A stretch of DNA of 49,689 nt from a phage. Below are positions 1,925 through 48,379 of the stretch, piece after piece. The position numbers and the translations under genes were made by a program. The stretch lies in the sequence record NC_105788.1; one strand, given 5' to 3'. The notes below the pieces were generated by a model, which made no database searches, was not told the origin of the DNA, and worked only from the letters and a program-made list of their open reading frames with translations. Each line of letters starts with the position of its first letter. Within the stretch, counting starts at the first letter, position 1.

Positions 1925-2296
1925 ATGTTTAAACAATTCGTAGACCTGGACTTCTCAGCCAGCACGGCAATCCAGACTGACGAGAAAGAAAGCGTAGCGA
2001 TCGAGAACATCGCGCGCAAGATTTACAACAAGCAAGAGAAGGCCGTGAGAGCCGCTCTAAGCGCTTATTATGGTGTAAGTGATGCAATGGAGTGCGTTAA
2101 CCGCGTAACGCGCGTGGTGGACCGTTTGGGTGTGTCTAGTTTCGTCGATAAAGACACTGGAGAGGTAATCATCCAGCTAAACAACCCATCTATGCGTACT
2201 GAGTTAGGCAATATTGCACTGTGGGGAGTTGCTAACTATTCAATCACCGTCAACTCATGTGTAGCGGATCGTGTTAAGGAGGCATTGTATGAATGA
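1925..2296 (+). CDS. hypothetical protein (123 aa)
   Basis: ATG at 1925 with AGAGGG RBS; ORF track 1901..2296 begins at a TTG. Confidence 0.5.
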   Translation: MFKQFVDLDFSASTAIQTDEKESVAIENIARKIYNKQEKAVRAALSAYYGVSDAMECVNRVTRVVDRLGVSSFVDKDTGEVIIQLNNPSMRTELGNIALWGVANYSITVNSCVADRVKEALYE

Positions 2297-2489
2297 TAAT
2301 ATTTACCGCGTAGTTGCGATCTCACGCAAAACGCAAAAGAGTGTGATCGCTTACATGGGTAGTAGCGCCATTGAAGCTACGGATGCCTTCGAATTATTGA
2401 AGAACAACGAGGGATTTATGAACACGTTCCGCGTTCGACTTGAGCGCCTCGAACCTGTTATCATTGATGAAGCGCGAAAGTTATCCTGA
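2289..2489 (+). CDS. hypothetical protein (66 aa)
   Basis: ATG at 2289 with AAGGAGG RBS; 8-nt overlap with upstream gene. Confidence 0.5.
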   Translation: MNDNIYRVVAISRKTQKSVIAYMGSSAIEATDAFELLKNNEGFMNTFRVRLERLEPVIIDEARKLS

Positions 2490-2505
2490 CTGGTTAGGGG
2501 GAATA

Positions 2506-2979
2506 ATGAACCATACTTACAAAATCACAACGAAGTCACCGAAGATTAACGGAAGCACGGTTGCGGCACTAAATAACGCGGCGGCAATTCACGAGAAAAA
2601 CATCATGGAGCGCGTTAAGGCGGCGGTAGGCCGATTCTACGGAATCAACGCAGACATTGCCGACAGCAAACGACTGTTCAAGTATGTGCCAGGCCATCCA
2701 TATAGCCGGATGATTGATATTAAGCACGACAAAGAGCTTGTTAGAATCGGATCGCTTGGCGTTGACGAGTTCGACCACAGCATTAACCTAGTTACGGCAT
2801 ATCAAACGTTGTTAGAATCGGATCGCTTGGCGTTGACGAAAAGCATGATTTGGATTCACACCTTCTACACCGGAAAATTTAACAGCGTTATTCATAAGAG
2901 AGTTTACGAAAGCTACTCTGAAGCTAATAAACAGCATGAAGTTTTAGGTGGAACGCTTAAAGCATATATTCCGGCATAA
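2506..2979 (+). CDS. hypothetical protein (157 aa)
   Basis: ATG 2506 after AGGGGG RBS; contains a 31-bp perfect direct repeat. Confidence 0.5.
   Translation: MNHTYKITTKSPKINGSTVAALNNAAAIHEKNIMERVKAAVGRFYGINADIADSKRLFKYVPGHPYSRMIDIKHDKELVRIGSLGVDEFDHSINLVTAYQTLLESDRLALTKSMIWIHTFYTGKFNSVIHKRVYESYSEANKQHEVLGGTLKAYIPA
2738..2839 (+). repeat. 31-bp perfect direct repeat (TTGTTAGAATCGGATCGCTTGGCGTTGACGA) at about 2738-2768 and 2809-2839
   Basis: read directly; copies 71 bp apart so they are translated in different frames. Confidence 0.7.
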
Positions 2980-2999
2980 ATAGCACGAATTGCTAAAGA
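2980..2999 (+). promoter_or_regulatory. conserved box ATAGCACGAATTGCTAAAGA
   Basis: box copy directly after stop of 2506..2979. Confidence 0.6.
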
Positions 3000-3057
3000 C
3001 ATGCTATCGGGGGTGATATATATTACTCCCACACCAAACGAAACAAAGGAATCAAAA

Positions 3058-3282
3058 ATGAGCATTAAAGTTGAGAATATCATCAAGCACCTGAACGCGA
3101 AAGGTCGTGTAGTTATCAAAATGGATAAGTCTTCCGGTTTTATTTCAATGACGGTAACTAAGTCCCGTAACGGTAATAACGTTATCGGCAGTACGCCAGG
3201 CTCGCGCTTAGTAAATGCAACAGATGCGGATGTGCGCGCTACGCTTGAGTCTAACTCAATTTACATTAATTCATGGAGTTGA
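3058..3282 (+). CDS. hypothetical protein (74 aa)
   Basis: ATG 3058 after AAAGGA RBS (internal start of ORF 3001..3282). Confidence 0.5.
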   Translation: MSIKVENIIKHLNAKGRVVIKMDKSSGFISMTVTKSRNGNNVIGSTPGSRLVNATDADVRATLESNSIYINSWS

Positions 3283-3495
3283 TTGATGGAGCGGGATAAT
3301 TTCTAGACTCGTTATTTTGCCGCTCTTGATGCTGGGCTTAGCGCGGAATGGTGTATCAAGGTTGCGTATAAAGAAATTACGCTTGACGACGCGCTAGGGA
3401 ATATGGATATGGACGCGGAGAGTGAATATAATCCCGGCTTCGAGATGCCTGGTGATGATATTGATGAGGACGACGACGATTATATTCCCTGGTAA

Positions 3496-3515
3496 ATAGC
3501 ACGATTTGTTAATAT
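3496..3515 (+). promoter_or_regulatory. conserved box variant ATAGCACGATTTGTTAATAT
   Basis: box copy after an unannotated acidic open frame. Confidence 0.5.
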
Positions 3516-3575
3516 TGCCGTAAGGTCATTTGATAAAGTGGCCTTATTCAAGATAACCAATCAGGAGCGAACGCA

Positions 3576-3992
3576 ATGAAAACCATTAAACTTAAATGCA
3601 CTTCAGCAGACAAAATCACAGGATTCGAAGTAAACAATCTGTATAAAGGTCGTGAGCGCTATGATGGCACTCGCGAAGTAAAGTTAAAATGCGGTAAGTA
3701 TTTAAAACTTGAAAAGCATGATGAATTACAGATTCACGGATCTGATGAAATCTTCTTCGCGAAGTTCACCGAGTTGAAAACAAAGACGCTCAAGTGCACC
3801 GGACTTGACCATCGCAACCCGATGAAAAAATCATTCAAAGTTGGCAAGCGTTATCAGGTAGAAAGCGGTCGCGCTCTTGGTGGCGTAGCTGGTTACATCT
3901 TTGATGAAGATGGATATCGCTGGACCCTGTTTCGCGAAGAGGTTGGTTTTAGTATCGCAGACGGCACAACCTTTGAGGCCAAATACTTATAA
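3576..3992 (+). CDS. hypothetical protein (138 aa)
   Basis: ATG preceded by AACCAATCAGGAG block. Confidence 0.55.
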   Translation: MKTIKLKCTSADKITGFEVNNLYKGRERYDGTREVKLKCGKYLKLEKHDELQIHGSDEIFFAKFTELKTKTLKCTGLDHRNPMKKSFKVGKRYQVESGRALGGVAGYIFDEDGYRWTLFREEVGFSIADGTTFEAKYL

Positions 3993-3995
3993 CCA

Positions 3996-4015
3996 ATAGC
4001 ACTTTTTGCTAAACG
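3996..4015 (+). promoter_or_regulatory. conserved box ATAGCACTTTTTGCTAAACG
   Basis: box copy after stop of 3576..3992. Confidence 0.6.
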
Positions 4016-4068
4016 CGTGTACCATTGGCGGTGTATCATTCACACCGTCAACAAAGGAGTTTATTGTG

Positions 4069-5637
4069 ATGTTTAATATTAAGCCAAAACTGAATTACCA
4101 ACAGATTATTGAGATCGCAAATAGCACTGGAGTTAATCCGGTGGCGATCGCAATTCGTGAAAACAGCTATGGGGATTCAGTTTCGTTTTGGCAAGATCCG
4201 ATCGATATCAACAGTGGAAACGATAAGTTCCCGCTGATTTCGTTAGGTGGCGATAACCTGGTATTCGAATATGCAAAGGCAAAGGCTGAGTCTGTACAGT
4301 TTCCTGTTTCGTCTGCGTACGCTCATTTCATTGGGTGCATCTCAGCCGCGATGCTAGGGAAGTTTTGGGTGCAATATCACGGAGAAGAGCAACCGACCGC
4401 TCTTTATATGGTGATTAGTCAGCCACCTTCAACAGGTAAATCAGCTATTAACTCAGCGGCGATTACACCTATGCGTGCGGAGATTCAGCGGCTGAATGAA
4501 GAGCGAAAAAAGGAGCGCATCCGTTTAACCAGTCAGCTACGTCAGGTCGAGAAGGAAATCAAAAACGATCCAAAGGGTAATACGACGGCGGCGCTGTACG
4601 AAGACAAGGAAAAACTGGAAGAAAAGATCAAGAAGATGGCTGATATTGTTTTTGCGGTATCAGATCCTACACCTGAAGGTCTTGCGAAAGTTGCGGCTGT
4701 TCAAGGTCATTTCTCAGTAATCTCTGATGAGGCAACGGCAATAAATACATTGCTTGGCCTGACTTATGGCGGCTCTGATAAGAAATCAAACAGCGAGCTT
4801 ATACTCAAGGCGTGGGATAAAAACCATATGGAGGTTGCGCGTTCAAATCAGGACAACAACTTATCTCTTTGCCCGGTCGGTTCGATCTGCGTCATTGCGC
4901 AGGATGAAACAATCAAGGGTATCATGGACGCAGGCCAGCGCGGCATCGGTGTATCTGAGCGTTTCCTCCTGGTTCGCGAGGAACCGCTTTTAGGTACTCG
5001 TATTCTTTGCGATGAAAATGGTGATGCGCTGTATAAGGAAGTCGATCGAGGGTTGGTGAGTAAATATTATCGACTCGTGCACAACATTATGAAGGAGGAC
5101 AACATTGTTCTCTCTGTAAGCCGCAATGCTATGCGTGAATTAAACCTTGCGCGTCAGGCGATGGAGCCGGATTTCGCAGCCGGGGGAAAATACTCTCACT
5201 CAATGCTACGCGGTCATCTCGGCAAGTTCGATAAGCATGCCTTGCGTATTGCTTCAGTTCTCCACACGATCAAGAATTGGGAGGGTGAATCACCGAACCG
5301 TTCCAACCGTGAGATTGACCTTGAAACAATGCAGGAAGCAATCATGATTTTCAATGAGCTTTCCAGGACTTATCTGTCGTCTGCCAGCGCTGCCGGGTAT
5401 GCTGGTGATGAGGCTGAATCTCGTAAGCTGATTGATGTTATCACTGAGATCGCAAAGAAGAACAAAGGGCGCGCTCCGATTCATAGCATTGTTGCAAAGT
5501 GCCGGAATGTTACGCCGTTCAACGGTCAACAGAAAGTATCTGAGCGAATCGACAGCCTGCTGATCACGCTCGAAGAGATGAACTACACTTGCCGGATTGA
5601 TGATATTGTTTTCATCAACCCTCGACTGATGGGTTAA
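4069..5637 (+). CDS. large early protein of unknown function (about 522 aa) with P-loop-like PPSTGKS motif
   Basis: ATG 4069 (GTG 4066 possible) after AAAGGAG; long uninterrupted ORF; motif resembles DUF3987-type NTPase signatures but not verified. Confidence 0.55.
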   Translation: MFNIKPKLNYQQIIEIANSTGVNPVAIAIRENSYGDSVSFWQDPIDINSGNDKFPLISLGGDNLVFEYAKAKAESVQFPVSSAYAHFIGCISAAMLGKFWVQYHGEEQPTALYMVISQPPSTGKSAINSAAITPMRAEIQRLNEERKKERIRLTSQLRQVEKEIKNDPKGNTTAALYEDKEKLEEKIKKMADIVFAVSDPTPEGLAKVAAVQGHFSVISDEATAINTLLGLTYGGSDKKSNSELILKAWDKNHMEVARSNQDNNLSLCPVGSICVIAQDETIKGIMDAGQRGIGVSERFLLVREEPLLGTRILCDENGDALYKEVDRGLVSKYYRLVHNIMKEDNIVLSVSRNAMRELNLARQAMEPDFAAGGKYSHSMLRGHLGKFDKHALRIASVLHTIKNWEGESPNRSNREIDLETMQEAIMIFNELSRTYLSSASAAGYAGDEAESRKLIDVITEIAKKNKGRAPIHSIVAKCRNVTPFNGQQKVSERIDSLLITLEEMNYTCRIDDIVFINPRLMG

Positions 5638-5641
5638 TAAT

Positions 5642-6049
5642 ATGCTTCTTCTTTTAGATCTGTTCAGGTTCTGCGAAGGTTACGACAAATACACCCGACA
5701 GCACATAGCGAAATTTATATACGCCCACAATGAAAGTGAGCGATTTGCTAAGGCCGCCGGGATGACTCGCCGTGAATTTACAAGCGCGCTATCTAAGGAG
5801 TTTTGCGCACGTTGCGTGACTGAGGGTTATCTTGATTGCAGGGGTGGGTTTTACTGGTGCAAGGGAAAGATCAAGCGCCCGGTAATGATGAAGCTGATGT
5901 GTATTGATGGCTACAACAATCGATATACGTGGGAAATGATGCACATTGGAGAAATGAGTGATGAAGAATTGTTTGGCGAACGTAGAAACGTTGATAGATC
6001 GGAACGTCGAATTGTGCGCAAGGCTCCAGCTTACGAAAGAAGAATTTGA
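5642..6049 (+). CDS. hypothetical protein (135 aa)
   Basis: ORF track; overlaps next call by about 90 nt in another frame, so the true 3' end is uncertain. Confidence 0.4.
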   Translation: MLLLLDLFRFCEGYDKYTRQHIAKFIYAHNESERFAKAAGMTRREFTSALSKEFCARCVTEGYLDCRGGFYWCKGKIKRPVMMKLMCIDGYNNRYTWEMMHIGEMSDEELFGERRNVDRSERRIVRKAPAYERRI

Positions 6050-6161
6050 GCAAGGATTACTTAGCCTACTGCTCACTTCGATGAGGGCCAATAACGACGG
6101 TGAGCACAATCTTTGCGATCAGGATGGGGAGTTGCTACTTCACGTCAAAAGGTACAAATAG
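5961..6161 (+). CDS. hypothetical protein (66 aa)
   Basis: ATG after GGAG RBS; stop TAG lies inside a box copy, as for many other genes. Confidence 0.45.
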   Translation: MKNCLANVETLIDRNVELCARLQLTKEEFEQGLLSLLLTSMRANNDGEHNLCDQDGELLLHVKRYK

Positions 6162-6177
6162 CACTTTTTGTTAAAAC
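6158..6177 (+). promoter_or_regulatory. conserved box ATAGCACTTTTTGTTAAAAC followed by hairpin CCCGAT..ATCGGG, TATATT and TTCATCGAAACGAAACG leader
   Basis: box copy. Confidence 0.6.
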
Positions 6178-6238
6178 ACCCGATCTCGCATCGGGTATAT
6201 TTGTTTCATCGAAACGAAACGACCTGAAGGAAAACATC

Positions 6239-6454
6239 ATGGCTAACAAATTTTTAGTAGTTCGCGTTTACAATCACTCAAACGGTACTAGTAGTGAGAT
6301 TCCTACTCTTTACAGCAAGACTGATGGGTGGACTGAAGAAGCGGCGGTGGCGAACGAGAAGAAGGTCGCTGAGATGTACGGCGACACCTGTGAAATTGAA
6401 GTTCGCGAATACGCAAAACTCACGAACGAAAGTTACATGTGGGCTGATGCATAA
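6239..6454 (+). CDS. hypothetical protein (71 aa)
   Basis: ATG 6239 after GAAGGA RBS (internal start of ORF 6113..6454). Confidence 0.5.
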   Translation: MANKFLVVRVYNHSNGTSSEIPTLYSKTDGWTEEAAVANEKKVAEMYGDTCEIEVREYAKLTNESYMWADA

Positions 6455-6458
6455 AAGA

Positions 6459-6487
6459 AAAGGAGGCTTACGCCTCCTTTTTTTCGT
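6459..6487. terminator. bidirectional intrinsic terminator (AGGAGGC-TTAC-GCCTCCT flanked by A-run and T-run)
   Basis: GC stem plus T8 on + strand and A-run upstream; lies between convergent + and - transcription units. Confidence 0.7.
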
Positions 6488-6872
6488 CCTTACGAATTGA
6501 AAAATAAACCAGCAACAGGCCAATGAAAACGAGAGTCCATCCTACAATTGCATCGTACCAGTTTTCCGGTTTTGTTACTGTGATGCTTTCAGCGTTAACC
6601 GTGTTAGCCTGAATGGTTGACACTTCAATTGACTTCTTCAAGGAAGAGTCAATCTTTCCTACATTGGACTTCTCAACTTTAACATCTCGCTTATCTTCGG
6701 ATTTTGCGGTTACTCCTGCTAATTGCTTTGTGTTCTCCTCTCCGATTTGTGCTGTAACTTCCGGTTTAGATCCGATTAAACCGCTCATGGCAGATGCCGT
6801 CGAGCAACCGGATAGAGAAATAACACCAACAGCAACAGCAATCGCAATGCACGTTTTCTTCATTCTCATCAT
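6468..6872 (-). CDS. unimolecular spanin (u-spanin, T1 gp11-like)
   Basis: N-terminal lipoprotein signal with lipobox LSGC plus C-terminal transmembrane helix ([20 protein letters not shown]); directly downstream of endolysin with ATGA start/stop overlap. Confidence 0.75.
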
Positions 6873-7357: not shown

Positions 7358-7572
7358 TATCTCCCCCTGATCTTAAGCGCCTTATTTAGATCGCCATCGT
7401 TTAACGCCTCCTGAATTGCCTTACTATCACGATACTTCCAGTACGCTCCCCAGGCGCCAAAAAGCAGAAAGCAAATGAATGTAGCGCCAGCAATATAAAG
7501 TTGCCCTGTCGCCGCCCCTACCAACGAAGCGCCGCCTGTGCTGGACGTCGCAGCGGTTAAAAATTCTTTCAT
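7357..7572 (-). CDS. holin (pinholin-like, about 71 aa)
   Basis: small membrane protein immediately upstream of SAR endolysin; start chosen at internal ATG with GGTGAG RBS; upstream TTG start of ORF track not supported. Confidence 0.6.
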
Positions 7573-13379: not shown

Positions 13380-13393
13380 GGCTATTTAATCCT

Positions 13394-13422
13394 TTGAATC
13401 GTTGTATCGTTTACGCTATAAT
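13394..13422 (+). promoter_or_regulatory. sigma70-type promoter (TTGAAT-17 bp-TATAAT) for Cro-like gene
   Basis: perfect -10 hexamer and 17-bp spacer read directly; a box copy lies at about +12 to +31. Confidence 0.55.
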
Positions 13423-13440
13423 ACACGACATACAGTAAAC

Positions 13441-13460
13441 GTTTTTAGCAAAAAGTGCTA
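13441..13460. promoter_or_regulatory. conserved box in inverted orientation (GTTTTTAGCAAAAAGTGCTA) between promoter and RBS
   Basis: operator-like position immediately downstream of predicted start site. Confidence 0.55.
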
Positions 13461-13473
13461 CAGGAGAATTAAG

Positions 13474-13926
13474 ATGAATATGCAACGTATCGCAGAATCA
13501 ACTGGTGAAATCGATAAACGTCACATTAATGGTAACAACGGAACGCGACGCGGTAAAGATAAAAAGCCTCGCCAACGCTGCGGTTTCTATATCCACAAAG
13601 AAGAAACACGCGCCGGACTGAGAGCGCGACTTGACGCTCTTATTGAATATTACGGCGGCCCAGCGGCCTGCGCAAAGGCTCTGAAAGTTAGCAATCAGAC
13701 CGTGCAAGGCTGGAAAGAGCGCAATATGATTTCGTGGCAAGGTGCTGAAGCTGCACATCGTGCTTACCGTCGTCAGGGTTGTAAAGGATTCCGCGCCGCA
13801 TGGTTGCGATTCGACCTCAAGTTTGACGGTAACGGCAAGTGTCTAGAGAAACGATGCAAGAACAAGAAGTTTATGCGAGTGGTGAGGAAGGAAGATATCG
13901 GGACGACCAATAGCATTTTTAGTTAA
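13474..13926 (+). CDS. Cro/C1-type HTH DNA-binding protein
   Basis: HTH segment GGPAACAKALKVSNQTVQGWKE; CAGGAG RBS; last codons TNSIFS-stop encoded by a box copy. Confidence 0.55.
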   Translation: MNMQRIAESTGEIDKRHINGNNGTRRGKDKKPRQRCGFYIHKEETRAGLRARLDALIEYYGGPAACAKALKVSNQTVQGWKERNMISWQGAEAAHRAYRRQGCKGFRAAWLRFDLKFDGNGKCLEKRCKNKKFMRVVRKEDIGTTNSIFS

Positions 13927-13929
13927 AAC
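13910..13929 (+). promoter_or_regulatory. conserved box variant ATAGCATTTTTAGTTAAAAC
   Basis: box copy overlapping 3' end of Cro-like gene. Confidence 0.5.
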
Positions 13930-13934
13930 AAACG

Positions 13935-13970
13935 ACGCGTAGCGGGGTAACATCCTTCTACGCGTTTTTT
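13935..13970 (+). terminator. intrinsic terminator (ACGCGTAG ... CTACGCGT + T6)
   Basis: 8-bp stem followed by T-run. Confidence 0.55.
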
Positions 13971-13986
13971 ATTTGGAGATCTGGAA

Positions 13987-14922
13987 GTGAACGAAGAATT
14001 TATGATGTTTCAGAAAGAGGACGTATTACCGTATATGAAGGGGTTATGGCGCGAGGCGTTCCAGTCCATATGCGGATTGCCTAACGAGGTTTTCAACAAG
14101 AAGCACCAACCTTGCCCTAACTGCGGCGGCAAAGACCGTTTTCGCTGGACTGACAATCTGAATACTCCCGGCGACGGCGGCGCGATCTGCAACTCATGCG
14201 GTAACGACTCAGGAATCGGTTGGCTAATGAAGCTAACTGGAATGCCGTACAGCGAATGCATAAACATCCTGGGGAGATTTCTCGGAAAGGTTCCGCAGGA
14301 ATACATTGTCAAGGCCAACAAAAAAGCGCGCCGAACTCCTGTATCTGGTGTTAATGTTATGATGGCAGACCACGAGGCAGTGATGAAAGTTATGGTGCGT
14401 ACAGAGAAGCGCGTAAACACGCCTCTAAGCACGTTTGAGTCACTACCTACTGAATCATTCGACGTTGGCGTAAAACGTCGCGAGGATGGCTCAGAATCAG
14501 TATTTCACACCATACCGTGTCAACTTGTACACGAGGACGGGCTTGATGATGAGTTCTGCAATATTTTGATTATTGATGAGGAAGGAAGAGAGTCATTCTA
14601 CGCGAAGAAATACACAAGCGGATCAGTTGCCGTGACTGGTAAAACTGAAAAGGCGATCTACTTATGCCTGAATTGGATTGATGCTCAGCACATTGCATTT
14701 CACACAAAACAAGAGGTATGGGCCTGCTTCACTCCTGAAAACCTAGAAATGGTTGCGTACAGATACAAAGGGGATCGCGAGGTAAGGGTGGCGTGCGAAC
14801 CTTCAGACAAAGATACTTTGTACATGGCTGACGATCGACAATTGAAGATAATCATCCCGAATCACGGAGGATACCGCTCAGGAATGCAAGCAAAATTATT
14901 CTCAGCAAGCGACCTACTTTAA
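13987..14922 (+). CDS. DNA primase with N-terminal zinc-ribbon (T7 gp4 / P4 alpha-like)
   Basis: CPNCGG..DRFRW..CNSCG zinc-ribbon motif typical of primase-helicase Zn-binding domain; GTG start after GGAG. Confidence 0.65.
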   Translation: MNEEFMMFQKEDVLPYMKGLWREAFQSICGLPNEVFNKKHQPCPNCGGKDRFRWTDNLNTPGDGGAICNSCGNDSGIGWLMKLTGMPYSECINILGRFLGKVPQEYIVKANKKARRTPVSGVNVMMADHEAVMKVMVRTEKRVNTPLSTFESLPTESFDVGVKRREDGSESVFHTIPCQLVHEDGLDDEFCNILIIDEEGRESFYAKKYTSGSVAVTGKTEKAIYLCLNWIDAQHIAFHTKQEVWACFTPENLEMVAYRYKGDREVRVACEPSDKDTLYMADDRQLKIIIPNHGGYRSGMQAKLFSASDLL

Positions 14923-14944
14923 CCGCCTTCGGGCGGTTTTTTAT
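14923..14944 (+). terminator. intrinsic terminator (CCGCC-TTCG-GGCGG + T6)
   Basis: GC hairpin with T-run immediately after primase stop. Confidence 0.7.
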
Positions 14945-14950
14945 TGCCCG

Positions 14951-14979
14951 TTGCAAGACCAGTACCACAATGATAAAAT
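14951..14979 (+). promoter_or_regulatory. sigma70-type promoter with extended -10 (TTGCAA-17 bp-TGaTAAAAT) for tail fibre gene
   Basis: read directly; box copy overlaps predicted start site. Confidence 0.55.
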
Positions 14980-14983
14980 CAGT

Positions 14984-15003
14984 GCTTAGCAATTCGTGCT
15001 ATT
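14984..15003. promoter_or_regulatory. conserved box in inverted orientation (GCTTAGCAATTCGTGCTATT) at predicted +1 region
   Basis: box copy between -10 and RBS. Confidence 0.55.
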
Positions 15004-15022
15004 TACTTAAGGAGTTTATACT

Positions 15023-16885
15023 ATGGCTTTATATAGACGCGGTACGGCATCAATGGATGCAGACGGAACGGTTCACGGAACCGATACAAAATGGAAAGAC
15101 CAACTAGCTCTGATTCGCGTAGGTGCAACTATCGTATTCCTGGAGCAACCAATTAAGCTGGCAGTGATTAGCGATATCGTTAGCGACACTGAATTAAAGG
15201 CTATCTCTACCGACGGTCAAACGGCGGCTAACGGTAAGTATGTGATCCTACTTAACGATTCACTGACTGTAAACGGCTTAGCTCAAAACGTCGCTGAGAC
15301 GCTTCGATACTATCAAAGCAAAGAGACTGAGATTGCCGGGGCAATGGATATCATTGCGAGTCTTGATATGGATAACCTTAACCGCATCGTTGAAGAAATT
15401 AAGGCGAACAAATCAGCCGCTGAATCTGCACAGAATCAAGCGGAACTTGCTCGAGACTCAGCGAATGCAGCACGTGACGAAGCTAAAGCCACCAAAGGAC
15501 AAGTTCAGCAAATTGTTGACGGGGCAGTAGGTAGCATCAATGCAGCAAAAGAACAAGCGATCACAGATGTAGGCTCTAAAGAATCAGCGGCGATTACGCA
15601 CATCGACACGGAAGAGAAAGCAGCCATTAAGGCAATCAATGACGCCAAAGGAGATCTGTCAGGTTACGTTAACAACGCTCAGGCGGCGGCGCAAACTGCA
15701 ACCTCAGCAAAAAACGACGCTCAGGCGGCACGAGACGCAGCGGTAAGATCAAAGGACGCAGCGGCAGTCAGCGCGCAGGAAGCTAAAGACGCAGCAAATA
15801 GCGTTGATGCATCCAATCTTCTTAAGAAGAGTGCCAACCTAAGCGACTTATCAAGTATTGGTGCGGCAATGGAGAATTTAGGTGTAGATAGGTTTGCTCA
15901 ATCTGAGAACAACGGAGAGACGCAGGTAAAAACAAAATCTAAATCAAAATGGATTTTCATAAAAGATAATAGTGATTGGGGGGCTTGGGATAATGCCAGC
16001 AGAAAAGCTATTCCGCTTCCGATTGGTTTCGGTGGCACGGGGCGCGGCGATAACGTCGCCATTTTCAGACAATTTAAATCAAACGGCGATTCACCGGACG
16101 GTGTTATTTTAAAGCAAAATGGTGATGGGTTCGGCGGTATTGGATGGGCCGATAAGAACGATAAGGTACGCTGGCGCGCAGGGATTGACGCCTCGGCGGG
16201 GCACTTTAAATGGTATTCATATGATTCTGCTGGGAACTACCGAGACACCATGCTGGAAATTACAGGGTTAGGTTTAGGCGGTATGGTGTGGTTTCGTGAT
16301 ATGACTGTACGCCCAACGGCAGCAGTTCCAGCGCGGTCTTTCGTACTAAACAATGGCAATGCAAGCGTACCCGCAGACAAACTTCGAACGATGTGGGATA
16401 CGGTTAACATTAACACCAATATCATCTATAAATATTTCGAAAAAGGTAACGGACAGGGTTTTACGATCAACTGGCCTACTACTGGCGGAACGCTGGCGCT
16501 TCAAGGCACGTCAGGGAGAGACTTTAAAAAGAACATTGAAGATGCTGATGTTATTGAGGCTGTAGAACGCATTGAGAAAATGCGAATGGTGCATTACGTG
16601 TATAAGGATGATGAGCAGGAGCGAGTTCGCTTCGGTATCATAGCAGAAGAAGCGGAGGAAATTGCGCCTCAATACATTAAGCATAGGGAAGAGGCATTCG
16701 ATGTTGAGATTGATCCTGAAACAAATGCTGTGATTGGGGAAAAAATTCGAGATCGACCTACTGTAGATAACAACCCAATCGTAATGGACTTGATGGGCTG
16801 CGCGCAGTATGCGATTCGTGAATGTAAGAGAATGGCGGCAGAAATTGAAGAACTCAAGGGGATTATTGAAGAATTGAGGGGGTAG
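15023..16885 (+). CDS. side tail fibre protein with C-terminal intramolecular chaperone (peptidase S74-like) domain
   Basis: Ala/Gln-rich coiled-coil-like central region; C-terminal region typical of auto-cleaving chaperone domains of phage fibres (T5 pb1 / endosialidase-like). Confidence 0.6.
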   Translation: MALYRRGTASMDADGTVHGTDTKWKDQLALIRVGATIVFLEQPIKLAVISDIVSDTELKAISTDGQTAANGKYVILLNDSLTVNGLAQNVAETLRYYQSKETEIAGAMDIIASLDMDNLNRIVEEIKANKSAAESAQNQAELARDSANAARDEAKATKGQVQQIVDGAVGSINAAKEQAITDVGSKESAAITHIDTEEKAAIKAINDAKGDLSGYVNNAQAAAQTATSAKNDAQAARDAAVRSKDAAAVSAQEAKDAANSVDASNLLKKSANLSDLSSIGAAMENLGVDRFAQSENNGETQVKTKSKSKWIFIKDNSDWGAWDNASRKAIPLPIGFGGTGRGDNVAIFRQFKSNGDSPDGVILKQNGDGFGGIGWADKNDKVRWRAGIDASAGHFKWYSYDSAGNYRDTMLEITGLGLGGMVWFRDMTVRPTAAVPARSFVLNNGNASVPADKLRTMWDTVNINTNIIYKYFEKGNGQGFTINWPTTGGTLALQGTSGRDFKKNIEDADVIEAVERIEKMRMVHYVYKDDEQERVRFGIIAEEAEEIAPQYIKHREEAFDVEIDPETNAVIGEKIRDRPTVDNNPIVMDLMGCAQYAIRECKRMAAEIEELKGIIEELRG

Positions 16886-16889
16886 ATGA

Positions 16890-16916
16890 AAGGGGCCAGC
16901 TGGCCCCTTTTTTTTG
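16890..16916 (+). terminator. intrinsic terminator (GGGGCCAGCTGGCCCC + T8)
   Basis: perfect palindromic GC stem followed by T8. Confidence 0.8.
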
Positions 16917-17333
16917 TTAGAACGGAATATCATCATCAAATGTTGACTGAGGATTTGGCTGTGGCTGTGATTGAGTTCGCTGTTGTTGCTGAGGTGCTCG
17001 TTGTTGCTGGTTGCTTTGTCCTCTCTGACTGAATACCAGCTTAGGAAAATCAGCAGCCTGCAATGAATTGTAAATCATTCCGTTGTGCTCACGTGATGAG
17101 ATCCTCAACGTCTCGCACGATACTGAGATTACTCTACCAACCTGGAACGCATCACGATACCAGTCAGCGAGACCAGGCTTCCCACCGTCGCTAAAAAAGA
17201 ATGTGTAGTTGGTGTATTCGCGATCGCCATCACGCGGCTTATAGCTTTCTGACAGTTCGATTATGTAAGTATTGCCGCCGTTACGTTCCAGAATCTTCGG
17301 TTCTTTGCGGATCTCTCCAGTGATAATATGCAT
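16917..17333 (-). CDS. ssb: single-stranded DNA-binding protein
   Basis: Gln/Pro-rich linker and hallmark acidic C-terminal tail DDDIPF. Confidence 0.75.
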   Translation of the reverse strand: MHIITGEIRKEPKILERNGGNTYIIELSESYKPRDGDREYTNYTFFFSDGGKPGLADWYRDAFQVGRVISVSCETLRISSREHNGMIYNSLQAADFPKLVFSQRGQSNQQQRAPQQQQRTQSQPQPNPQSTFDDDIPF

Positions 17334-19921: not shown

Positions 19922-19943
19922 AAGAAAAGCCCCGCAAGGGGCT
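19919..19943 (-). terminator. intrinsic terminator (AGCCCC-TTGC-GGGGCT + T-run on minus strand)
   Basis: hairpin at end of late operon, shared with convergent cor gene. Confidence 0.65.
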
Positions 19944-20632
19944 TAGTCGTATGCTGCCGTTTTGATTGCTGTTATAATATTTCCATTATTCGTTGTGTTC
20001 ATTATCTGACCCGCCGCAGTGGTTGCTGCTGCATTTATTCTCGTTGTGCTCCCGTTGTACCTGCATGAACTTCCTGCTGTTGAGTTTCCTATTATTGGTT
20101 GCCCAGTTGGCAACCTACCAATAACAACTTGATAGTTGCCAAGTATAGTTGGAACAACCGCGTAGCTTCCGCTGAGTGTTGTGTCTATGTTTAATCCACC
20201 GCCAGCGTATCCAGGAGTGCCGATTGTAACCAAATCACTAAGGACTTTTGTCTCATTTGTCAGCACTAGCTTTCCTGACGCATCCCATATCGCCATACCC
20301 CAGCTCGGTAGTGACTGCTCAAATATGGCAAATATGTAATATGTTAGTGTGTATGATTGGTTTGCTGGATTTGTCCCCCTTATATAAACAGTTCCAACAT
20401 TGGGTCCACTTCTGAAAGTAAAGGCTGAAAGCGCGGTCCCCTGCTGCGTACTTGTTGTTTTGCAAAAAGCTATAACCGGAACACCTGTAGGTATCCGAAC
20501 ATATCTCTCCGCAACCTGTGAACCACTAACATTTACTGATTTAATTTCCCCTCTCGCATATAAAGCGAATGGCGTGGATAGCGGGGTTATGAATGGATTT
20601 CCGTTTACATCTATAAAAGCACCGTATGACAT
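19943..20632 (-). CDS. putative distal tail fibre / receptor-recognition protein (229 aa)
   Basis: last gene of late operon downstream of J; Gly/Thr/Asn-rich; shares a (A/S)IWDA(S/N)G motif with the preceding 101-aa protein. Confidence 0.4.
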   Translation of the reverse strand: MSYGAFIDVNGNPFITPLSTPFALYARGEIKSVNVSGSQVAERYVRIPTGVPVIAFCKTTSTQQGTALSAFTFRSGPNVGTVYIRGTNPANQSYTLTYYIFAIFEQSLPSWGMAIWDASGKLVLTNETKVLSDLVTIGTPGYAGGGLNIDTTLSGSYAVVPTILGNYQVVIGRLPTGQPIIGNSTAGSSCRYNGSTTRINAAATTAAGQIMNTTNNGNIITAIKTAAYD

Positions 20633-20982: not shown

Positions 20983-23900
20983 TTACCATGAGCCAGTCAA
21001 CCTGCCAATCTGAACCCTAAGGCGACCACTCGCATCCCTAACAGATATTGTGGTATTGGTTTGCTTCATTGCACCCTCACCGTCACTTCCGTAGTTTTCA
21101 AATGTACCTCCCTTGTCAAGTCTCCAGCCAGCCTTGTTAACGACATAGTTATTCGATTGAATAACGTTACCAATCATCGCATTCGTGATGAATCCGTTCT
21201 TAATGATGGCACTATTAAGAATCACCTGATTACCTTCAACAACGAAAGGATACTGAGTCTGGCCATTCATTCCAGTCATGATTGCAAATCGTGACGCTTC
21301 GAATAGAATTTGCGCTTTAACCGCCGCGCCGGAACCAATCAGAGACATGGCCATGCCTGCGCTGTATTCCTGACCGTTATATTTCAGACCTAGCTTGACG
21401 CCGTACATTGCCCCAGTCGAATTAGCGTTACTCCATGAGTCTAATTTTTGAGCAAGTGCTGCCTCGTTATCTCCAAGCCTTGCGCTCAGCGTCAAGTCGG
21501 CTTGCGTTCTCGCCTCAGTTTCATTTGCGATAGCCTCGCGGATATCGGTCAAACTTGCCTGAATATCGTCACCAATCTGAGCCTTAAGCTGGTCAATCTC
21601 ACGCGATAAAGCCTCAGTTTCAGTTGCGATAACTTCACGCAGTTCGCTATTGCTTGCGCTAATCTGATCACCAAAACTTGCCCTCAACTGCTCAACTGCT
21701 GTTACTCGCGCCTGAGTCTCATCAGCAATTAGTTGCAGTGATTTGGTGTACTCTGCTTTTCGTTTTCCGTTCTCCTTCTTCATGTAGATCGCGTCTTTGT
21801 CATTAGCTAGTGCGTTCTCAATTGCTGCCTCTGCGTTCGCTGCGTTCTGCGACGCGTTGTCGGTTGCGTTATCAACAAGCCATTCGTAACCCGGCGAGTT
21901 TTCGATATCGACAGAAATCTCTCCGATGATATCGTCAACGTTTGTTGATGCCATGCCCCTGACAAAATCAGTCCACTGAGACACGTTACCGATCCTGTCA
22001 ACTGTCCTTACCCGATACCACACAATATTCCCTCCCGGCATCGGTGAGTGATAATACTCATGCTGCGGGTACGGAATCAAAGAAAGCAAACTTGCGTTAT
22101 CCACTGTTCCATCCGGTGACTGTTGCAACTCTGTATAGGCCGTATCTCCAGAACCATCAGAGAACCCCCATTTTGTACGGATACCAAAAACAACATCATC
22201 CGTAGCTGTAAGGTTAATCGGTCGGCCCGGCTCACCTTGTTTACCCGTCAGCGTCGCAGCTACGATATTTGACCATCCTGAAGTCGTACCGGAACCAGCG
22301 ACAGAGCGAACGCGAACCTGATAGTTGCCAGCGTAAATACCTTCAACGTATACCTCTTTATTTGCCGTCTGCGGTACATTTTGCCAGTTGCCGTTATCCT
22401 TTCGCCACTGGACGTCATAGAAAACTGCGTACGGCACTTTATCCCAGCTAACAATCATCGTTTCTACGCTCATCCCCTGGACGATTCTCGACTCTGAGGA
22501 CACTTGCACGTTTTCCGGTCTAGGGATCTGATCTGGTTCAACGATGCTCGTCGGTCGGTCGTCGATGTTAACTCCGTAATCAATCTCGTCGTACTTGTTA
22601 GGATCGTACTCCACCGCCGTGATTTTGTAGGTAAATTCCTCGTCATCATCGCCCTTATCGATTTTTGTCACGACGTACTGTTGTAGCGCAATGTCTGTGC
22701 GGTCGATAGCGAATACCGTGTTAGGCTTCACAGGAAAGCCAAAGCCAATGTTAACCTCTATAGTCTTACCATCCGCACTAACACTTGAGATTGTGCGCTT
22801 CACGGGCTTTCCGTCGGGCTTATTTACGATAATAAAGTCACCTGCGCGCGCATCCACACGGAACGGCAAGAAAATCTGGCTTCCAGACACTTCAAGCAAG
22901 CGCCCTGATAGGTTCATAGTCAAGTTGCTTGACCAGAAGTTGTCGGCTATTGCCACAACATCACCTATTGTCGGGATCATGCCCTCAAGCCCGGTCGCGA
23001 AGTTTACCGTAGTGCTGCGAAGGTTGGTCTTCAGAATCCATCGCCCTCGTCGGTTAGCCTCGCTTCGACGCGTGCAACCTATCGCTGTAATGCTGGTTAC
23101 GTTATTACCGAACCGCAGAGTCGCCTCACGATCGAATACTGGCTCAACGTCCTGTTGATACATGTTTTGTTCGTCGTCAAACATCACGTTACACGTCGTG
23201 TACATACTCTTTTCGCTTGCGAACGTATAGGAGAAGTCACCATTAACAACGTTGTCGTTAGTGAAGATGTACGCAGGCTCACGCGGTCTGTCGATGATTA
23301 CCGAGATGCTTTCACCATTCCAGAAGCTCATACCACGGAATATTGAGCAAATATCTCGAATCACCTTGTACGCATCAGTCTGTGACTGAATTATCACGTC
23401 GCAAAGGTAGCGAGGCTCCGTACCACCTTTCCCGTCGGGAACCATCTGGTCGCAATATTGCGCCGCCTCATAGAGCGCCCATTTATCGACGGAGATTCCA
23501 AGCTCCTTCTGATCCAGCCCGTAGCGCTGATTAATCATCAGGTCGTATAGAACCCATGCCGGGTTGTTAGTCCACGCCTTCTTGAAAGTCCCATCCCAAT
23601 TGCCGTTGTAGGTTCGTGATTCCGGATCGTAGTTTGATGGAACGTTTACAATCTTCCAGCGCTTACGAATTGAGATCGTAGGTAACTGGTTTGGGAACAT
23701 CTTCGAGTCGAACTCGACGAAAAGAAGACCTGTCAGAGGGTAACGGAATTTGGCATCAATCACCTCGGCATAGCTCTTTACTTGGATCGCATCAACAACG
23801 TTAGAGTCGTTAGAGTCTGGAGTCTTTCGAACAACTCTGAATATTACCTGACTGTTGAAGTTCGGAAGGTTTACGCGACGACTTCGATCGTAACCTGACA

Positions 23901-24402
23901 TTGTTTTGCCTTCGATTACATCGGTGAGCACCGTCTCAAACGAGCCACCATCAACAGCTTGTTGCACCTCGTACTCAACGCGAACGCCGTTTTTATCACC
24001 GTTACTTTCAATTCGCACGCCGCGAGGCATAAACATTTTGATGCGTATTGCCGATAGTGTTTTATTGGTCACTGAGATCGTGTAAGGGTTATCGGTAGTA
24101 ACCTCACGACTTACAGTTACCTCACTGGAACTATCTTCCATGCCCTTGATGTATTCCTGCGTCTGAGTTCCTGGCCTGAACTCAGCCTTTACTCCCTCGA
24201 AGTTAAATGAGCCATCCTCGTTTTGCACCGGGACTGAGTTAAACATCAACTGCTTTAGGCTGAATGTTTCGTCAATTTCACCATCAGATACAGCTAACAG
24301 GATCTTGATTTTGTTGATTGAGATTAGATTGTCTTCCATCTCAACTGGGTTATGAGGCTTCTGTGATCCACCTTTAGATCCACTTATCACTTTTTGAATC
24401 AT
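20983..24402 (-). CDS. central tail fibre / host specificity protein (lambda gpJ-like)
   Basis: N-terminus and internal blocks align by eye with lambda J (SKGG..NL.S...I..L.AVS.G.I.; SNYDPESRTYNGNWDGTFK; WALYEAAQYCDQMVPDGKGGTEPRY); 1139 aa. Confidence 0.9.
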   Translation of the reverse strand: MIQKVISGSKGGSQKPHNPVEMEDNLISINKIKILLAVSDGEIDETFSLKQLMFNSVPVQNEDGSFNFEGVKAEFRPGTQTQEYIKGMEDSSSEVTVSREVTTDNPYTISVTNKTLSAIRIKMFMPRGVRIESNGDKNGVRVEYEVQQAVDGGSFETVLTDVIEGKTMSGYDRSRRVNLPNFNSQVIFRVVRKTPDSNDSNVVDAIQVKSYAEVIDAKFRYPLTGLLFVEFDSKMFPNQLPTISIRKRWKIVNVPSNYDPESRTYNGNWDGTFKKAWTNNPAWVLYDLMINQRYGLDQKELGISVDKWALYEAAQYCDQMVPDGKGGTEPRYLCDVIIQSQTDAYKVIRDICSIFRGMSFWNGESISVIIDRPREPAYIFTNDNVVNGDFSYTFASEKSMYTTCNVMFDDEQNMYQQDVEPVFDREATLRFGNNVTSITAIGCTRRSEANRRGRWILKTNLRSTTVNFATGLEGMIPTIGDVVAIADNFWSSNLTMNLSGRLLEVSGSQIFLPFRVDARAGDFIIVNKPDGKPVKRTISSVSADGKTIEVNIGFGFPVKPNTVFAIDRTDIALQQYVVTKIDKGDDDEEFTYKITAVEYDPNKYDEIDYGVNIDDRPTSIVEPDQIPRPENVQVSSESRIVQGMSVETMIVSWDKVPYAVFYDVQWRKDNGNWQNVPQTANKEVYVEGIYAGNYQVRVRSVAGSGTTSGWSNIVAATLTGKQGEPGRPINLTATDDVVFGIRTKWGFSDGSGDTAYTELQQSPDGTVDNASLLSLIPYPQHEYYHSPMPGGNIVWYRVRTVDRIGNVSQWTDFVRGMASTNVDDIIGEISVDIENSPGYEWLVDNATDNASQNAANAEAAIENALANDKDAIYMKKENGKRKAEYTKSLQLIADETQARVTAVEQLRASFGDQISASNSELREVIATETEALSREIDQLKAQIGDDIQASLTDIREAIANETEARTQADLTLSARLGDNEAALAQKLDSWSNANSTGAMYGVKLGLKYNGQEYSAGMAMSLIGSGAAVKAQILFEASRFAIMTGMNGQTQYPFVVEGNQVILNSAIIKNGFITNAMIGNVIQSNNYVVNKAGWRLDKGGTFENYGSDGEGAMKQTNTTISVRDASGRLRVQIGRLTGSW
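21510..21710 (-). repeat. diverged tandem repeat of about 100 bp (33-aa coiled-coil unit) inside J-like gene
   Basis: GCCTCAGTTTCA(T/G)TTGCGATA recurs at 100-bp period. Confidence 0.5.
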
Positions 24403-30592: not shown

Positions 30593-30612
30593 ATAGCACT
30601 TTTTGTTAAAAT
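30593..30612. promoter_or_regulatory. conserved box (ATAGCACTTTTTGTTAAAAT, inverted relative to gene) directly abutting the gpG RBS
   Basis: box copy inside late operon. Confidence 0.5.
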
Positions 30613-34356: not shown

Positions 34357-34376
34357 ATAGCACTTTTTGTTAAAGC
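34357..34376. promoter_or_regulatory. conserved box (ATAGCACTTTTTGTTAAAGC, inverted relative to local genes)
   Basis: box copy between decoration-like gene and capsid gene. Confidence 0.5.
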
Positions 34377-41063: not shown

Positions 41064-41089
41064 GTTTAACATTTAGTGCTATTTTACCA
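41064..41089 (-). promoter_or_regulatory. box copy (ATAGCACTAAATGTTAAAC) overlapping an extended -10 (TGGTAAAAT) upstream of TerS
   Basis: read directly on minus strand. Confidence 0.45.
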
Positions 41090-42893: not shown

Positions 42894-42913
42894 GTTTTAG
42901 CAATTCGTGCTAT
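42894..42913 (-). promoter_or_regulatory. conserved box (minus strand ATAGCACGAATTGCTAAAAC)
   Basis: box copy overlapping TAG stop of kinase gene. Confidence 0.6.
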
Positions 42914-44266: not shown

Positions 44267-44286
44267 GTTTTAGCAATTCGTGCTAT
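44267..44286 (-). promoter_or_regulatory. conserved box (minus strand ATAGCACGAATTGCTAAAAC) followed by hairpin AAGGGCA..TGCCCTT
   Basis: box copy after TAA stop of upstream gene. Confidence 0.6.
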
Positions 44287-47620: not shown

Positions 47621-47640
47621 TTTTTAACAAAAAGTGCTAT
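47621..47640 (-). promoter_or_regulatory. conserved box (minus strand ATAGCACTTTTTGTTAAAAA)
   Basis: box copy overlapping TAG stop of upstream gene. Confidence 0.6.
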
Positions 47641-48359: not shown

Positions 48360-48379
48360 GTTTTAACAAAAAGTGCTAT
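48360..48379 (-). promoter_or_regulatory. conserved box (minus strand ATAGCACTTTTTGTTAAAAC)
   Basis: box copy after first gene of minus early arm. Confidence 0.6.

Follow-up and report, generated by a model that had tools for sequence, protein, structure and literature searches.

A probable lateral tail fibre gene at the usual Drexlerviridae locus of the T1-like coliphage CLB_P3, with a predicted exchange of its 3′ part and an inverted copy of the family repeat over its predicted transcription start

The closest described counterparts of the gene considered here, a 620-codon open reading frame in a stretch of phage DNA of 49,689 nt (sequence record NC_105788.1, hereafter called the window), come from several groups of phages. 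In Drexlerviridae, the locus concerned has been presented in the BASEL paper as the lateral tail fibre locus (S1C Fig legend), with conserved primase/helicase and recombination flanks and, of the fibre gene itself, conservation of the 5′ end only (PMC8594841). The type fibre of the genus Tunavirus is Orf26 of phage T1 (CPTT1_053, AAP49973.1). LtfB of the T5-like phage DT57C has been described as an O-antigen-recognising fibre and attributed to O81 (PMC4728585), and in the Cronobacter phages CRES7 and CRES9 (Drexlerviridae, related to CS01) two residues of gp28, a fibre with an auto-processing intramolecular chaperone, alter the O-serotype host range and adsorption (PMC12090712). Furthermore, phage TLS contains a 21-nt repeat, aaATAGCACnnnTTGnTAAAA, in 18 intergenic copies that are co-oriented with transcription and located ~76 nt upstream of start codons, the function of which was named an open question by Kropinski and co-authors (PMC11447400). 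Comparison with these systems indicates that the gene in the window is very probably the ordinary lateral (side) tail fibre gene of the T1-like coliphage CLB_P3, situated at the usual locus of the family, and that the 3′ part of the gene is the portion predicted to be exchanged among phages.

A 4-kb query around the locus matched Escherichia phage CLB_P3 (OL770108.1; Tunavirus, Drexlerviridae; host E. coli 55989) with 100% identity over 4021 nt, and 67 other T1-like records with 60-95% identity. The open reading frame is already annotated as "tail fiber" in OL770108.1 (UNI73318.1), and 11 PHROG tail fibre families match the protein (best E=2e-80). The locus as such is therefore already known, as the published Drexlerviridae lateral tail fibre locus and as part of a deposited, annotated genome. 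A preliminary description made from the letters of the sequence had proposed a 620-residue fibre with a C-terminal S74-type domain, encoded on the plus strand between the primase and SSB genes, outside the morphogenesis operon, and provided with an extended -10 promoter, a box and a strong terminator of its own. All of these elements are present (Table 1) and, together with an upstream terminator, form a layout conserved across genera, in line with a transcription unit of its own. The span given in that description, 13987-16885, holds the fibre gene, but it begins at the start codon of the primase gene and so covers two genes. The statement that the gene lies far from the other structural genes was too strong. 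The morphogenesis block, which includes J and the genes for the major tail protein, the major head protein and the small terminase subunit, extends on the minus strand from 19943 to ~41072, and the fibre gene is located outside this block and on the opposite strand, but only ~3 kb from its end, separated from the nearest tail-module genes by three recombination genes and cor.

At its C-terminus, the protein carries an S74 intramolecular chaperone domain. In a hidden Markov model search, Peptidase_S74 (PF13884) was the sole Pfam domain in the protein, matching residues 498-551 over profile positions 2-56 of 58 with 44.2 bits (cut-off 22; E=2.4e-11), and the domain occupies the extreme C-terminus, residues 497-620 of 620. 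The S74 dyad consists of the cleavage-site serine and a lysine five residues further on, as in Ser911/Lys916 of endoNF. The corresponding Ser497 (codon 16511-16513) and Lys502 (codon 16526-16528) lie in QGTSGRDFKKNI (QGTS497GRDFK502KNI) and neither of them varies among 40 aligned homologues. Over its last 147 residues, this motif included, the protein aligns with LtfA of DT57C (chain in PDB 8HQZ, E=1.7e-45), and the auto-processing chaperone domain of MyRF (7DC3) aligns as well, with its lysine opposite Lys502. An AlphaFold2 model was computed for residues 268-620 as a monomer, so that the trimeric arrangement is outside its scope; the predicted local distance difference test score (pLDDT) of its chaperone part was 72-91. 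The top nine Foldseek matches of the model were intramolecular chaperones, all of them chains of K1F endoNF (3GW6) and MyRF (7DC3), and the phage GA-1 chaperone (3GUD) was also among the matches (E from 3.5e-4, probability 0.96-1.0, template modelling score 0.43-0.50 on single-domain targets). The K1F endosialidase chaperone, the founding MEROPS/Pfam S74 member, and T5 pb1 thus resemble the CLB_P3 domain in profile match, Ser/Lys(+5) dyad, C-terminal position and fold; however, identity to 3GW6 is only 13-14%, and the passenger is a sialidase there and a fibre tip in CLB_P3. S74 fibres are on record in Drexlerviridae, as the annotation of the Stevie fibre cites PF13884.

The remainder of the protein comprises an N-terminal domain, an alanine-rich shaft (25% Ala in residues 111-275) and a glycine-rich and beta-rich distal part (14% Gly in residues 276-497). 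The N-terminal domain (residues 1-129) was present in 847 phage records in a tblastn search, including Klebsiella depolymerases such as that of RAD2, the sequence of which (PDB 7LZJ) is matched by residues 1-164. Its identity is 95-99% within Tunavirus and 48-64% to TLS, ACG-M12 and KP36, and that of the shaft (residues 130-267) is 78-95% within Tunavirus and at background level outside this genus. From this architecture we infer a course of events in which the N-terminal domain would dock the fibre on the tail and the distal domain (residues 268-496) would recognise a surface glycan, with O-antigen as the most likely candidate. If the chaperone behaves like those of the K1F endosialidase and of the T5 and DT57C fibres, it would serve as a template for the folding of the trimer and afterwards release itself by cleavage at Ser497, with Lys502 as the partner residue, so that a predicted mature fibre of ~496 residues remains.

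The CLB_P3 fibre is composed of segments with different relatives. In global alignments by residue segment, with the CLB_P3 fibre as the reference, identity over residues 1-129, 130-267, 268-357, 358-496 and 497-620 was, in this order, 95, 78, 26, 18 and 19% for T1; 98, 95, 26 (Chapo) or 27 (SA30RD), 17 and 17% for Chapo and SA30RD; 22, 29, 64, 65 and 80% for the Dhillonvirus phage Oekolampad; and 26, 26, 22, 60 and 70% for DT57C LtfB. At the DNA level (blastn), homology to T1, Chapo and SA30RD extends from the helicase boundary through the promoter region into the first ~800 nt of the gene, where identity is 87-92%, ends at 15805-15825 and restarts at 16910-16917. The left breakpoint corresponds to the end of the alanine-rich shaft (codon ~262-268). 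The DNA of the variable cassette is 70-72% identical to Oekolampad (15947-16851) and to DT57C ltfB (16159-16810), and the distal part, found in Dhillonvirus phages and DT57C ltfB, is thus common to three siphovirus groups. Because DNA homology breaks inside the gene and resumes after it, the exchanged unit is, as judged from these alignments, the 3′ ~1.08 kb (residues ~268-620, i.e., distal domain and chaperone), excluding the regulatory signals, and the promoter, the N-terminal anchor and the shaft are inherited vertically. Host-range variation would arise via recombination inside the fibre gene that replaces this 3′ portion, and the tip of CLB_P3 and ADB-2 is of the type of Dhillonvirus fibres and of the T5-like DT57C LtfB.

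T1 Orf26 shares with the CLB_P3 gene the position between primase and SSB, the terminator, the promoter-like site and the inverted box, but differs in its unrelated distal part (17-27% identity after residue 268) and lacks S74. The fibres of T1 (Orf26, 4644-6830) and Chapo (2144-4270; both in their own locus numbering) end in PF25670, the "Phage tail protein C-terminal domain", without S74; close Tunavirus relatives thus use two different solutions at the fibre C-terminus. ADB-2 was the only one among the compared Tunavirus relatives with the whole CLB_P3 architecture: its fibre (YP_007112729.1) has the same 620 residues with S74, is 86% identical and is encoded at the same locus, but residues 358-496 are only 67% identical, suggesting that the receptor-binding region diverged or was exchanged again. 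On the DNA level, ADB-2 and CLB_P3 are 65-77% identical across 16073-16822, which covers the receptor-binding domain and most of the chaperone, ~90% identical elsewhere, and back to 92% at the 3′ end. This drop indicates a putative second, nested layer of exchange or rapid divergence.

Outside Tunavirus, LtfB of the T5-like phages DT57C and DT571/2 (Demerecviridae) is 66.7% identical over residues 358-612 (E=1e-117), that is, over the distal domain and S74. LtfB differs in residues 1-357 (22-26% in the global alignment, which is background), in its length of 788 residues, and in family and genome context; it was proposed to branch off LtfA, whereas the CLB_P3 fibre has a T1-type anchor. By this comparison, the CLB_P3 fibre has one module in common with LtfB without being its orthologue, because its N-terminus is T1-type and the N-terminal part of LtfB is at background identity. 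The Dhillonvirus fibres (Oekolampad gp27, SECphi18 and gp25 of Sodalis phage SO-1) are 70-75% identical over residues ~260-606 with S74 present, and their gene is likewise a lone one flanked by opposite-strand genes; however, the N-terminal 250 residues are unrelated (22-29%) and the gene is located beside the J/receptor-binding locus and not after primase. CS01, the relative of CRES7 and CRES9, has the primase-fibre order and an N-terminal domain with 47% identity. In contrast to CLB_P3, the chaperone-bearing gp28 belongs to another genus with another host, its distal domain has no close similarity, and CS01 has no box upstream.

The order regulator-primase-fibre facing SSB-Erf-RecE was observed in T1, TLS and ACG-M12, and the fibre gene directly follows primase also in AKS96 (Rogunavirus), PGN590 and slyngel (Hanrivervirus), Stevie (Tlsvirus), 12210I (Veterinaerplatzvirus) and CS01 (Kyungwonvirus), so that this arrangement recurs in nine Drexlerviridae genera. 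In a tenth genus, represented by the Webervirus phage KP36, the recombination block is inverted and the fibre/depolymerase gene follows SSB. As the primase-fibre order is kept in nine genera and the KP36 order is explained by a block inversion, the position and layout of the fibre gene are, on comparative grounds, ancestral to Drexlerviridae rather than the result of an insertion.

The fibre gene appears to form a one-gene transcription unit of ~14921-16911 with its own predicted promoter. The rho-independent terminator directly 3′ of the primase stop codon (7-bp stem with 5 GC pairs, U6, -11.8 kcal/mol, z=-3.2) is kept in T1, Chapo, SA30RD, ADB-2 and ACG-M12, is annotated in the T1, Chapo and SA30RD records, and would isolate the fibre gene from the regulator-primase transcript. 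It is followed by a sigma-70-type promoter-like site, annotated as a promoter in the Chapo record, with a predicted transcription start near 14986. The bidirectional terminator that separates the fibre gene from the convergent SSB gene has a 10-bp GC-rich stem, with -18.2 kcal/mol and U8 on the plus strand and -16.6 kcal/mol and a weaker U tract on the minus strand, where it serves SSB; it is annotated on both strands in SA30RD. In five Tunavirus genomes, the upstream terminator, both promoter hexamers and the box are invariant and the promoter spacer varies. Among 11 representative phages, nine have a terminator and then TGnTAnnnT at 40-55 nt from the fibre ATG, although the sequence around these elements cannot be aligned, and the two Tlsvirus genomes have TTGCAT-17-CATAAT instead. 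The promoter-like site is credible only because the terminator and TGnTAnnnT recur upstream of the fibre gene in these nine phages, and a dedicated fibre promoter, although predicted, has good comparative support.

The box lies over the predicted transcription start, covering +1 to +19, and ends 18 nt before the fibre ATG (its 17-nt core ends 20 nt before). The core (14986-15002, minus strand) matches the Drexlerviridae intergenic repeat ATAGCACnnnTTGnTAA at 17 of 17 positions, and contains the dyad TAGCA-N5-TGCTA centred at 14994. The same 17/17 match holds for the consensus of the TLS repeat, but the TLS copies are co-oriented with transcription, whereas the CLB_P3 box is inverted relative to the fibre gene and located downstream of the gene's own -10 element, with its centre near +9. 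In the window we counted 23 copies of ATAGCACnnnTTGnTAA with at most one mismatch, compared with 0.05 expected. Downstream of 18 of these 23 copies there is a [T/C]AnnnT hexamer, at 21 nt in 17 cases and at 22 nt in one; TGn precedes approximately half of the 18 hexamers, and a -35 element at the usual distance is missing from all of them. In many cases, a conserved CATCGAAACGA-like leader, a ribosome-binding site and an ATG come next. The repeat therefore looks like a repeated promoter cassette without a -35 element, with a predicted dyad position near -42 as calculated from the spacing. We did not find the fixed spacing of the repeat to a -10 hexamer stated in PMC11447400, and a full-text literature search with the exact box sequence returned no paper.

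The fibre box departs from this pattern, as no -10 hexamer is present at the canonical offset on either side. It is conserved and inverted in T1, ADB-2, Chapo, SA30RD, ACG-M12 and 12210I, and an inverted fibre box is absent in TLS, Stevie, KP36, AKS96, two Hanrivervirus phages and CS01. In ACG-M12 (Braunvirinae), which has 19 copies of the repeat, only the fibre copy is truly inverted relative to its gene. A function of the box as a leftward, antisense promoter was considered and rejected, since only TACTGG, which is not a -10 hexamer, occurs at the canonical offset. As an RNA element, the box would form a weak 5-bp hairpin (-3.8 kcal/mol, or -1.3 kcal/mol for the T-type variant), and the leader had z=0.0 against shuffled sequence. 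A speculative and rather doubtful proposal is that the repeat serves as the operator of a dimeric factor, with the C2/Cro-like protein encoded two genes upstream as the best candidate, that would activate ~18 promoters and repress the fibre promoter. A factor on a dyad near -42, where lambda cI is placed at PRM and class II activators also bind, could plausibly activate promoters without a -35 element, and the same site near +9 of the fibre promoter, which has its own -35-like hexamer and an extended -10, could plausibly block RNA polymerase. If this were true, fibre synthesis would run opposite to the rest of the regulon, for instance remaining off until replicating genomes titrate the factor; the repeat would gain a function, and there would be a reason for the fibre gene to remain a unit of its own within the replication module.

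Some other copies of the repeat also have unusual positions. The copy at 34357-34373 (plus strand) is inverted and lies just before the terminator upstream of the major head protein gene. The copy at 30593-30609 (plus strand) is inverted, 21 nt upstream of the ATG of the tail assembly chaperone gene, with a canonical -10, TGaTAAGAT, on the antisense strand. The copy at 41066-41082 (minus strand) is co-oriented, but the distance to the ATG of the small terminase gene downstream of it is only 17 nt, too short to accommodate a -10 element. None of the three was found at an equivalent place in ACG-M12.

The presence of terminators on both sides, a promoter-like site of its own and the strand opposite to the morphogenesis genes could suggest that the gene moves as a whole, together with promoter and terminators, as a host-range cassette that T1-like phages acquired or trade with one another, as the preliminary description had put it. 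We consider this very improbable: the gene has the same position after primase in nine Drexlerviridae genera, the promoter and the 5′ ~800 nt follow T1, Chapo and SA30RD up to the break inside the gene, the N-terminal domain tracks phage taxonomy, and the GC content at the locus is without anomaly. What stands of that proposal is the host-range module in a narrower sense, namely, the distal 3′ ~1.08 kb, which is predicted to be exchanged and to determine host range by homology. The gene might also be expressed by read-through from the regulator-primase operon (promoter 13394-13422) past a leaky terminator, with the promoter-like site as a chance match. The regulator, primase and fibre genes are indeed co-oriented, the number of promoter-like matches in the region, 6, is no higher than expected from shuffled sequence (5.8), and a literature search for T1 transcript-start or RNA sequencing data found nothing relevant for any T1-like phage. 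Nevertheless, read-through appears unlikely, given that the primase terminator is strong and conserved, that an extended -10 follows the terminator in nine of 11 phages despite unalignable surroundings, and that the layout of terminator and TGcTATTAT persists in KP36, in which the upstream neighbour is SSB.

With regard to the function of the protein, the orthologous Webervirus locus encodes capsule depolymerases with the same N-terminal domain (RAD2, PDB 7LZJ; KP36 gp50), and an endosialidase was the protein on which S74 chaperones were first described, which could point to an enzymatic tailspike or depolymerase instead of a binding fibre. However, Pfam detects no catalytic domain in the protein, the region from shaft to chaperone has only ~230 residues and is homologous to the distal part of an O-antigen-recognising fibre, DT57C LtfB, and Foldseek gave no match to a beta-helix or depolymerase fold; we give an enzymatic role hardly any credence. 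A lateral tail fibre remains our preferred reading, and homology to LtfB and the data on CRES7 and CRES9 gp28 support its distal part as a putative host-range determinant. Several points, in addition to the chance-level frequency of promoter-like matches, weigh against it. The distal-domain model is beta-rich but poor (mean pLDDT 66.9, predicted template modelling score 0.31), and the Foldseek search gave no confident fold match for the receptor-binding part. The receptor specificity of LtfB cannot be transferred to CLB_P3 at 60-70% identity, and the isolation host E. coli 55989 is O104, not O81. In four Rogunavirus phages, seven virion proteins were identified by gel-band mass spectrometry, among them a 124-kDa J-like fibre but not the primase-adjacent one (PMC4070988). 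The BASEL authors stated that the role of the Drexlerviridae fibre "has never been directly demonstrated" (PMC8594841). In the literature searched, we found no proteomic study that directly places this fibre in the virion of a T1-like phage; for TLS, a band of 78 kDa was left unassigned. Support for the lateral fibre in Drexlerviridae virions thus appears thin, and virion attachment, autocleavage, receptor and promoter activity of the fibre gene are inferred.

Table 1 Coordinates of the fibre gene, its signals and its neighbours in the window
Feature	Position	Strand	Details
C2/Cro-like helix-turn-helix regulator gene	13474-13926	+	two genes upstream of the fibre gene
Primase gene	13987-14922	+	Zn_Ribbon_Prim, PHROG 510; upstream neighbour of the fibre gene
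Rho-independent terminator	14921-14938	+	directly 3′ of the primase stop; AACCGCCTTCGGGCGGTT then TTTTTTATT
Sigma-70-type promoter-like site	14951-14979	+	TTGCAA-17-TGaTAAAAT, extended -10 (TG before the hexamer)
19-bp box	14986-15004	-	TTAGCAATTCGTGCTATTT; perfect copy of the Drexlerviridae intergenic repeat
Shine-Dalgarno sequence	15009-15014	+	AAGGAG, read from sequence; 8 nt before ATG
Lateral tail fibre gene (probable)	15023-16885	+	open reading frame, 620 aa plus stop codon; PHROG tail fibre families
N-terminal domain, residues 1-129	15023-15409	+	family-wide conservation; putative virion attachment
Alanine-rich shaft, residues 130-267	15410-15823	+	composition, identity pattern
Distal part, glycine-rich and beta-rich, residues 268-496	15824-16510	+	in the segment predicted to be exchanged; putative receptor binding
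Peptidase_S74 intramolecular chaperone, residues 497-620	16511-16882	+	PF13884; predicted autocleavage at Ser497
Variable cassette	15826-16909	+	segment without DNA homology to T1, Chapo and SA30RD (blastn)
Bidirectional terminator	16888-16911	both	between fibre gene and convergent SSB gene; GAAAGGGGCCAGCTGGCCCCTTTT then more T
SSB gene	16917-17333	-	PHROG 44; convergent with the fibre gene, downstream; then Erf and RecE-like exonuclease
Nearest tail-module genes	19943-20632; J 20983-24402	-	start ~3 kb from the fibre gene
Example repeat copies	733-749, 1198-1214, 1615-1631, 2980-2996, 42897-42913, 44270-44286, 47624-47640, 48363-48379		at most one mismatch

The window (49,689 nt) is offset from OL770108.1 (49,721 nt) by 5,908 nt, position 13380 of the window being position 7472 of the record, and appears to be a circular permutation or another assembly of CLB_P3. 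Upstream of the fibre unit, 13380-13473 is a divergent control region, in which a near-consensus sigma-70 promoter, TTGAAT-17-TATAAT (13394-13422, plus strand), serves the C2/Cro-like regulator. The helicase operon on the minus strand has a canonical repeat-type promoter, the box of which (13445-13461) lies inside the regulator leader. A variant dyad at 13446-13460 might be taken for an operator through which the regulator controls its own gene. We discarded this as the primary reading, as the dyad belongs to a box in canonical orientation that is followed, on the minus strand, by a -10 hexamer at 21 nt and is thus the box of the helicase promoter. In the stretch 13910-13985, upstream of the primase gene, there is a degenerate copy of the repeat with two mismatches. 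The predicted primase -10, TAACAT, is located in the loop of the terminator of the regulator gene (GCGTAG...CTACGC, then a T-run); hence, this terminator and the primase promoter are interleaved.

CLB_P3 has been used in gut-colonisation and therapy models against E. coli 55989, and its lateral fibre combines a T1-type anchor with a tip of the Dhillonvirus and T5-like type. The breakpoint at codon ~262-268 marks where distal cassettes with a built-in chaperone could be swapped, and such swaps could retarget T1-like phages without a separate assembly factor. As a fibre gene, the locus is routine; its residual interest is regulatory and lies in the conserved inverted repeat over the predicted transcription start. 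Apart from the one in the fibre leader, no copy of the family repeat combines conservation, inversion and overlap with a predicted transcription start, which makes this leader a natural test site for the function of the repeat.

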